A stretch of DNA of 64,000 nt from Escherichia phage vB_Eco-B1.1. Below, in pieces: positions 33,349 through 33,509 of the stretch. Both the position numbers and the translations under genes were made by a program. The notes under the pieces are model-generated. The model ran no database searches. It saw nothing but the letters and a program-made list of their open reading frames with translations, and had not been told where the DNA came from. The stretch is from sequence record ON871820, one strand, 5' to 3'. Positions within the stretch are counted from its first letter, which is position 1. Every line of letters begins with the position of its first letter.

Positions 33349-33378
33349 GTTTACTTCCTCCAAGGGTTTTGATACTAT
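33349..33378 (+). promoter_or_regulatory. early promoter cassette with flanking inverted repeat
   Basis: GTTTAC at 33349-33354, -10 TTGATACTAT; inverted repeat CCTCCAAG (33357-33364) / CTTGGAGG (33393-33400). Confidence 0.6.
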
Positions 33379-33395
33379 ACATTCATCAACTACTT

Positions 33396-33509
33396 GGAGG
33401 AAATTATGACCCGTCCGAAGCGTCCATTGCGATAAATCAAGCACGCTTAGATGAAAAAATTGATCAACGTCCGACTTGGTACAAATACTTTGGTAAATCA
33501 ATTTACTAA
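33396..33509 (+). pseudogene. denV: denV (endonuclease V) 3' remnant
   Basis: Frame encodes [37 protein letters not shown], matching the C-terminus of T4 endonuclease V from memory; no in-frame start or N-terminal catalytic region; the upstream ATG (MTRPKRPLR) is out of frame. Confidence 0.65.

Follow-up and report, generated by a model that had tools for sequence, protein, structure and literature searches.

In phage T4, denV encodes endonuclease V (EndoV), a pyrimidine-dimer DNA glycosylase-AP lyase, and the locus analysed here raises the question of what has become of this gene in Escherichia phage vB_Eco-B1.1 and by what route. The window (the whole stretch of 64,000 nucleotides that was analysed, from sequence record ON871820) covers the region of e, the ip genes and denV in a T4-like phage (Tevenvirinae), shown on the transcribed strand, and its best relatives among the matches listed are Tequatrovirus genomes with 95–96.5% identity over 25 kb, none of the records in the phage collection searched being identical to it. 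The T4 gene order is nudE, e, ipIII, ipII, denV, vs.8, with denV directly after an ip gene. The window has a stretch of 169 nt between a 93-aa and an 86-aa ip gene that holds no long ORF. A first-pass annotation, made from the letters alone, had taken this stretch for a 3′ remnant of denV left behind an inserted promoter/ip cassette.

Gene neighbourhood and the denV remnant

The genes and sites around this stretch are as follows.

32088-32543, + strand: nudE, ORF
32580..33068, + strand: e, T4-type lysozyme, 162-aa ORF; all relatives annotate lysozyme/endolysin
33065..33346, + strand: ip-like ORF of 93 aa with the N-terminus MKTYSEF..., start codon overlapping the end of e as ATGA; assigned to PHROG 3499 ('internal head protein', E 1e-46)
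33516..33776, + strand: ip-like ORF of 86 aa with the N-terminus MKMYQEFIVEA..., found behind denV in every relative; assigned to PHROG 2667 ('internal head protein', E 2e-19)
33781-33809, + strand: promoter-like site before the ipIII-like gene (10 of 12 in a promoter scan, with TG)
33838..34416, + strand: ipIII-like gene, 192 aa, PHROG 5341, E 1e-117

The PHROG families of all three ip genes are annotated as internal head or virion proteins, and the overlap of the first of them with the e stop, already described in the first-pass annotation, was confirmed. The order around denV is thus e, ip93, denV, ip86, ipIII in the window versus e, ipIII, ipII, denV in T4. Within the 169-nt stretch, three overlapping or adjoining features can be assigned to denV itself.

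33402..33414, + strand: deletion junction, one hybrid copy of a 13-nt direct repeat, AATTATGACCCGT (by comparison with Pu-Krd-SF4)
33406..33435, + strand: residual start ORF, the native denV ATG and codons 2-3, joined out of frame to denV nt 320 onward
33415..33509, + strand: denV 3′ remnant, denV nt 320-414 of the 414-nt gene, i.e. codons 107-137 and the stop (tblastn E 3e-16 and 4e-16; PHROG 1183)

The descent of the remnant from denV is supported by sequence homology. When the 64-kb window was searched by tblastn with T4 EndoV (a query sequence that agrees with PDB 2END, residues 1-137), residues 96-137 aligned with 33381-33506 at 74% identity (E 3e-16), and the 37-aa peptide translated from 33396-33509 matched positions 107-138 of 139 in the endonuclease V family PHROG 1183 (E 1.6e-7). 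In alignments, the remnant DNA is 97-100% identical to the 3′ end of intact denV alleles. The peptide had been recognized as the EndoV C-terminus, and this identification holds with the exception of its leading 'GG', which is the Shine-Dalgarno GGAGG read in frame; denV homology truly begins at 33402, from where the old-frame reading gives a 35-letter peptide, and the 'NYDP' near the start of the 37-aa peptide is the 13-nt repeat itself in the old frame. The short ORF at 33406-33435, which translates as MTRPKRPLR followed by a stop, had been correctly placed out of frame with the remnant, but it is no chance ORF: its MTR represents the native first three denV codons, i.e. the real denV start, joined to the denV tail by the deletion described below.

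The absence of an N-terminal catalytic part was equally borne out, as protein and DNA searches (tblastn, blastn) found no denV N-terminal sequence in the 64-kb window, and nothing similar to EndoV residues 1-95 elsewhere in it. The ORFs at the remnant are 9 aa (from ATG) and 65 or 46 aa (from TTG) in length, and an uninterrupted ORF of ~137-138 aa is absent. The earlier statement that there is no in-frame start needs amendment to the extent that two TTG codons, at 33312 and 33369, do lie in frame; neither has a ribosome-binding site. No Pfam match was obtained for the 37-aa remnant or the 65-aa TTG-ORF, and the remnant does not reach the gathering score of PF03013 (Pyr_excise); the intact EndoV of Pu-Krd-SF4 scores 53.6 bits (cut-off 23) with this model over aa 1-87, a region that lies wholly inside the deleted part. 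The stretch 33402-33509 is a denV pseudogene, real but ordinary, and not a member of the enzyme family.

A 310-bp deletion between direct repeats

A megablast search with 32580-34420 returned 792 related records. The closest of them (Phaginator, G8, G4498, BF15, 235Ecol030PP and Shinka) matched in a single piece, while most other records matched in 2-3 pieces, with a span at least about 300 nt longer and endonuclease V annotated. Five intact loci were compared with the window, namely Lutter and G2133 (labelled Tequatrovirus), SA79RD and JS09 (labelled Mosigvirus) and Pu-Krd-SF4 (a record without a genus). Each of the five loci shares with the window e, the 93-aa ip gene, the 30-nt promoter and GGAGG, which lead into a 414-nt denV and then a second ip gene. 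Intact denV starts with ATG-AC(C/T)-CGT-ATC-AAT, that is ATGAC(C/T)CGTATCAAT..., which encodes MTRIN, and the EndoV of an intact relative (137 aa) aligns over its full length with the T4 EndoV structures 2END and 1VAS (E 5e-81).

The flanks of the intact relatives are colinear with the window base for base, and the sole difference in the alignments is a 310-nt gap, with no foreign DNA at the junction. Direct repeats flank the missing stretch, AATTATGaCCCGT at the start codon and AATTATGtCCCGT at denV nt 307-319; in Pu-Krd-SF4, AATTATGACCCGT lies over the start codon (locus 2323-2335) and AATTATGTCCCGT at 2633-2645, at a spacing of exactly 310 nt. The start-codon copy has the form AATTATG(A)CCCGT (AATT-ATG-ACC-CGT) and the internal copy the form AATTATG(T/A)CCCGT (AAT-TAT-GxC-CCG-T). 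Because the internal copy in the intact SA79RD allele reads AATTATGACCCGT, a perfect 13-mer pair is attainable. The pair is one of only two direct-repeat families that a repeat search found in the 501-nt region. Colinear flanks, a repeat at both ends and a single copy kept in the window are together what a direct-repeat deletion leaves.

These comparisons make it almost certain that the locus is a denV pseudogene which arose when a single deletion within the gene took out 310 bp between 13-nt direct repeats. The ancestor would have carried e, ip (93 aa), an early promoter, denV (414 nt), ip (86 aa) and ipIII in this order, and a single event would have removed denV nt 10-319, i.e. codons 4-106 and one further base (~75% of the gene), leaving one hybrid repeat copy, while the promoter, the Shine-Dalgarno and the ATG would have outlived it. 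Since 310 equals 3 x 103 + 1, the native start (ATG ACC CGT, continuing across the junction as CCG AAG CGT CCA TTG CGA TAA) yields MTRPKRPLR and then a stop, and the last 31 codons are out of frame. Slipped mispairing in replication or recombination between the repeat copies is the likely route, the two being indistinguishable from sequence.

Deletion between short direct repeats is a classical T4 deletion mode, known from rII studies, and such short-direct-repeat deletions in T4 rII were reportedly described by Singer and Westlye in 1988. The present case resembles them in that the deletion ends in a direct repeat (13-nt here), keeps one copy and spans a few hundred bp. It differs in that the window allele is natural and fixed in wild isolates rather than laboratory-selected, and in that one repeat copy contains the start codon, so that all expression signals survive.

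Predicted loss of endonuclease V function

The first-pass annotation had named a full-length denV elsewhere in the genome as what would refute its reading; none was found in the 64-kb window or in the complete genome of G4498. G4498 carries the junction and is the most similar of the top-listed relatives (96.5% over 25 kb), and a tblastn search of its whole 167,826-bp genome with two EndoV sequences returned only the remnant and a weak gp49 match (E 0.001). A blastn search with the 310 deleted bases found nothing elsewhere in the window or in G4498. For the remaining ~105 kb of the phage genome, a second denV would be excluded only by analogy with G4498. The one tblastn match in the window besides the remnant, at 53527-53673 (E 4e-4), was tried as a denV copy and rejected, as it is the C-terminus of gp49 endonuclease VII (ORF 53215-53688). 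The C-terminal part of this protein and EndoV residues 56-101 share 41% identity (E 4e-4), a weak and reproducible similarity, and a similarity of endonuclease VII to EndoV is also found in the older endonuclease VII literature.

In T4 EndoV, Glu23 and the DNA-binding arginines and basic residues are essential, and the alpha-amino group of Thr2 provides the catalytic N-terminus; the biochemistry of these residues is said to have been established in papers from the Lloyd laboratory. The window has no polypeptide that joins the catalytic N-terminus to Glu23 and Arg22/Arg26, as codons 4-106 are absent, the frame is shifted and a stop follows after 9 codons. With the Pyr_excise domain (aa 1-87) deleted, Glu23 and the DNA-binding arginines are missing, and a product devoid of Glu23 and of the basic residues that bind DNA could not be a pyrimidine-dimer glycosylase. 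It is very probable that the phage is without this activity, so that the first-pass claim of a lost UV-dimer glycosylase can be kept, on sequence grounds, as very probable, but not its attribution to a cassette insertion, in whose place a repeat deletion is to be put. The UV sensitivity of the phage would be about that of a T4 v- mutant or of phage T2.

It could be argued that the remnant is still functional, either through a small protein started at TTG 33369 or 33312 or with the 9-codon ORF serving as a regulatory leader for the downstream ip. The segment does persist in 13 isolates with its promoter and Shine-Dalgarno intact, and a 46-aa ORF has been called there in the records of JM17 and FL18. 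However, persistence is what would be expected after a recent deletion in a compact genome, and a peptide from the remnant would be missing the whole catalytic domain. TTG 33369 lies in the promoter −10 region, has no Shine-Dalgarno and would be missing from a promoter-initiated mRNA. An extra 1-nt deletion breaks the frame in JM10, FL12, FL23 and FL44, and the substitutions that are specific to deleted alleles (among those sampled) are non-synonymous. We consider a functional remnant very improbable, and return to the pseudogene as the reading of this stretch.

The 46-aa ORF is annotated 'endonuclease' by RASTtk in JM17 (JM17 locus 1570-1710, equivalent to window 33369-33509) and in FL18, with its TTG in the promoter −10. 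It is a spurious call on the pseudogene remnant, which the other records leave unannotated.

Putative promoter, predicted hairpin and the ip cassette

Two control elements precede the residual start.

33349..33378, + strand: T4-early-type promoter-like site (GTTTAC, 18 nt, TACTAT), the putative native denV promoter, retained
33355..33402, + strand: perfect 10-bp inverted repeat TTCCTCCAAG / CTTGGAGGAA, arms 33355-33364 and 33393-33402 (repeat search)

The early promoter-like site at 33349-33378 had been pointed out in the first-pass annotation and is a predicted element that corresponds base for base to a feature annotated 'promoter' in Lutter (Lutter locus 2270-2299). Intact and deleted alleles do not differ in it, T4 carries GTTTAC...TACTAT at the equivalent position, and the candidate falls below the threshold of a generic sigma-70 scan. 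The left arm of the inverted repeat lies in the promoter spacer and the right arm covers the denV Shine-Dalgarno GGAGG (33396-33400), with a predicted RNA fold of −19.1 kcal/mol (z −3.46). The equivalent pair in T4 reads TCTCCTGTAG / CTACAGGAGA (T4 locus about 2367-2410, minus strand), with compensatory changes that indicate that the stem is kept. Read-through transcripts from e/ip would hide the Shine-Dalgarno in this stem, whereas transcripts from the denV promoter would not. This logic of a Shine-Dalgarno hidden in read-through transcripts is known for T4 e, soc and 49. As a consequence of the deletion, the 86-aa ip start is now 138 nt from the −10 element of the denV promoter, formerly 448 nt, and the 86-aa ip gene is the first real gene behind this promoter, which may now mainly serve it. 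A 1-nt indel was seen just 5′ of the −35, where Phaginator and JM10 are without one T of TAGTTGTTTAC in the 2-nt spacer between ip93 and the promoter (33347-33348).

The promoter and the 93-aa ip gene bear directly on the first-pass proposal, in which the 5′ part of denV was displaced when a mobile promoter/ip cassette entered the gene. Such an event would not be foreign to this region, as ip/ORFan cassettes are shuffled modularly via promoter-early stem-loop (PeSL) elements, and T4-type ip genes are known to shuffle through these conserved promoter/stem-loop elements (Arbiol et al. 2010, PMC2839356); the ip order around denV also differs from that in T4. An insertion would predict intact denV alleles that are not preceded by the cassette. 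Instead, the cassette is present and identical in 5/5 intact relatives, where ip93, the promoter, the Shine-Dalgarno and ATGACCCGT precede full-length denV. There is also no extra DNA at the junction, where the missing segment is bounded by the 13-nt direct repeats: 310 nt were deleted and nothing was inserted. The proposal would survive only if all intact alleles had been restored secondarily from an ancestor with the cassette, an implausible course of events. Cassette insertion is ruled out by the alignments with intact relatives, and its probability is in our view close to negligible. By the same alignments, the 93-aa ip gene and the promoter are ancestral at their position. The difference in ip order between T4 and the allele family of the window fits the known cassette shuffling and is unrelated to the truncation. 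The window resembles PeSL-shuffled regions as an ip hyperplastic region with early promoters and a stem-loop, where an ~850-bp mosaic block of ip93, delta-denV and ip86 shows 95-100% identity between phages labelled Tequatrovirus and Mosigvirus, but the denV truncation ends in a coding-sequence repeat and not in two promoter elements.

Distribution and origin of the deleted allele

The first-pass suggestion to look for the same junction in related genomes was followed with an 81-nt junction-spanning query under an E-value limit that only junction-spanning matches could pass. Exactly 15 records, representing 13 phages, carry the junction (G4498, G8, BF15, 235Ecol030PP, Phaginator, Shinka, F27, JM17, FL18, JM10, FL12, FL23 and FL44), and the 231-nt locus occurs in any form in 236 records. 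A scan of IMG/VR for the exact junction gave one contig of 169,650 bp, probably the genome of phage G8. Six of the carriers are labelled Tequatrovirus or are closest to it, and seven belong to Mosigvirus, F27, JM10 and JM17 according to their record labels and FL18, FL12, FL23 and FL44 by inference. Recorded sources include German manure for G4498, US sewage for Phaginator and Danish pig faeces for JM10 and JM17. Assemblers are occasionally misled by short repeats, but a sequencing or assembly artefact in which reads collapsed between the repeats has a probability of practically nil and is ruled out by the identical junction in 15 GenBank records from 13 independent isolates, different laboratories and several countries, by a 13-nt repeat far shorter than reads and by the existence of lineage-specific secondary changes.

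With the repeat deletion as the origin of the junction, its variants can be compared among the carriers. The junction reads ATGACCCGT in 12 of the 13 phages and ATGTCCCGT in Shinka, which has the base of the downstream repeat (equivalent 33409). Shinka and JM10 resemble G2133-type alleles in keeping the ancestral AGT and GCT in the remnant, and their junction points lie on either side of the mismatch between the repeats; two deletions, one heteroduplex resolved two ways or a later point mutation could account for this difference. In the remnant, the substitution of N for S at 33436 and that of D for A at 33463 occur only in deleted alleles among those sampled. The first of them, 33436 G to A, is common to the window, Phaginator, G4498, JM17 and F27 and is absent from the five intact alleles sampled and from T4; its presence in both genera argues for lateral spread of an already deleted allele. 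JM10 has an extra 1-nt deletion in an A-run of the remnant, as have FL12, FL23 and FL44 by their 229-nt span. Decay of the remnant is thus visible, both in this extra deletion and in the substitutions seen only in the deleted alleles sampled.

Identity between the window and the Mosigvirus carriers JM17 and JM10 is 53-85% over nudE and most of e and 93-100% from about 32990 to 33830, after which the alignment is lost and the downstream ip is unrelated. The shared ~850-bp block comprises the 3′ end of e, ip93, the promoter, delta-denV and ip86. The jump in identity indicates a mosaic segment common to Tequatrovirus and Mosigvirus, and the block looks like a sharply bounded mosaic exchange between the genera. 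Neighbour joining and a table of SNPs over the shared block do not make the deleted alleles monophyletic, and the upstream SNP haplotypes ATC and GCT are each found with both deleted and intact alleles, which means that the block itself is recombinant; for this reason the tree is compatible with a single as well as a multiple origin. The two junction variants, ATGACCCGT and ATGTCCCGT, are both derivable from a G2133-like parent and would be the evidence for more than one origin. We tentatively raise, as a scenario that is possible and on balance rather unlikely, that the 13-nt pair is a recurrent deletion hot-spot and that the null allele originated on more than one occasion and was then passed between Tequatrovirus and Mosigvirus in the ~850-bp block. 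If this were true, denV would be dispensable, repeatedly lost and possibly selected against in the UV-shielded gut, manure and sewage.

Comparison with known systems and significance

The closest known counterpart of the locus is T4 denV with its product (PF03013; 2END, 1VAS). The remnant corresponds by homology to residues 103-137 of this product, at 74-83% identity, and the two loci share the neighbourhood of e, ip genes, denV and the vs.8 side, as well as the promoter, the Shine-Dalgarno and the first three codons. In contrast to T4, the window is without codons 4-106, the rest is frameshifted, and there is neither a Pfam domain nor Glu23. Our literature search found no paper on this denV allele, on natural denV loss in T4-like phages or on relevant work with Phaginator.

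The practical relevance of the allele lies in annotation and in UV tolerance. Thirteen deposited T4-like genomes carry a denV pseudogene that is not annotated as such, and two of them label the spurious ORF as an enzyme. By analogy with the classical data on T4 v- and T2, carriers of the deleted allele are expected to show about twice the UV sensitivity of denV+ siblings, which is relevant for therapeutic or biocontrol phages under sunlight or UV. The deletion reveals no new mechanism. It is a clear-cut case from nature of gene loss through microhomology, and of a null allele carried from one genus to another within a mosaic block.

T2 is already known as a T-even phage that naturally lacks denV, and the allele described here is a new null form, found in nature, of this dispensable repair gene, produced by a known mechanism. 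T2 is designated 'v-' in the classical T2/T4 'v' difference. In the T2 genome (AP018813), no EndoV-like sequence was detected in the 12 kb around e (58000-70000), and only one ip gene (157 aa) lies between e and the vs.8 homologue; a T2 locus without denV agrees with the classical difference. T2 and the phage studied here are alike as natural lineages without EndoV, but T2 has no trace of the gene, whereas the window keeps a datable remnant and the exact junction. In the T2 record, several product names are clearly mis-transferred, with small early ORFs named 'tail sheath monomer' and 'major capsid protein'.
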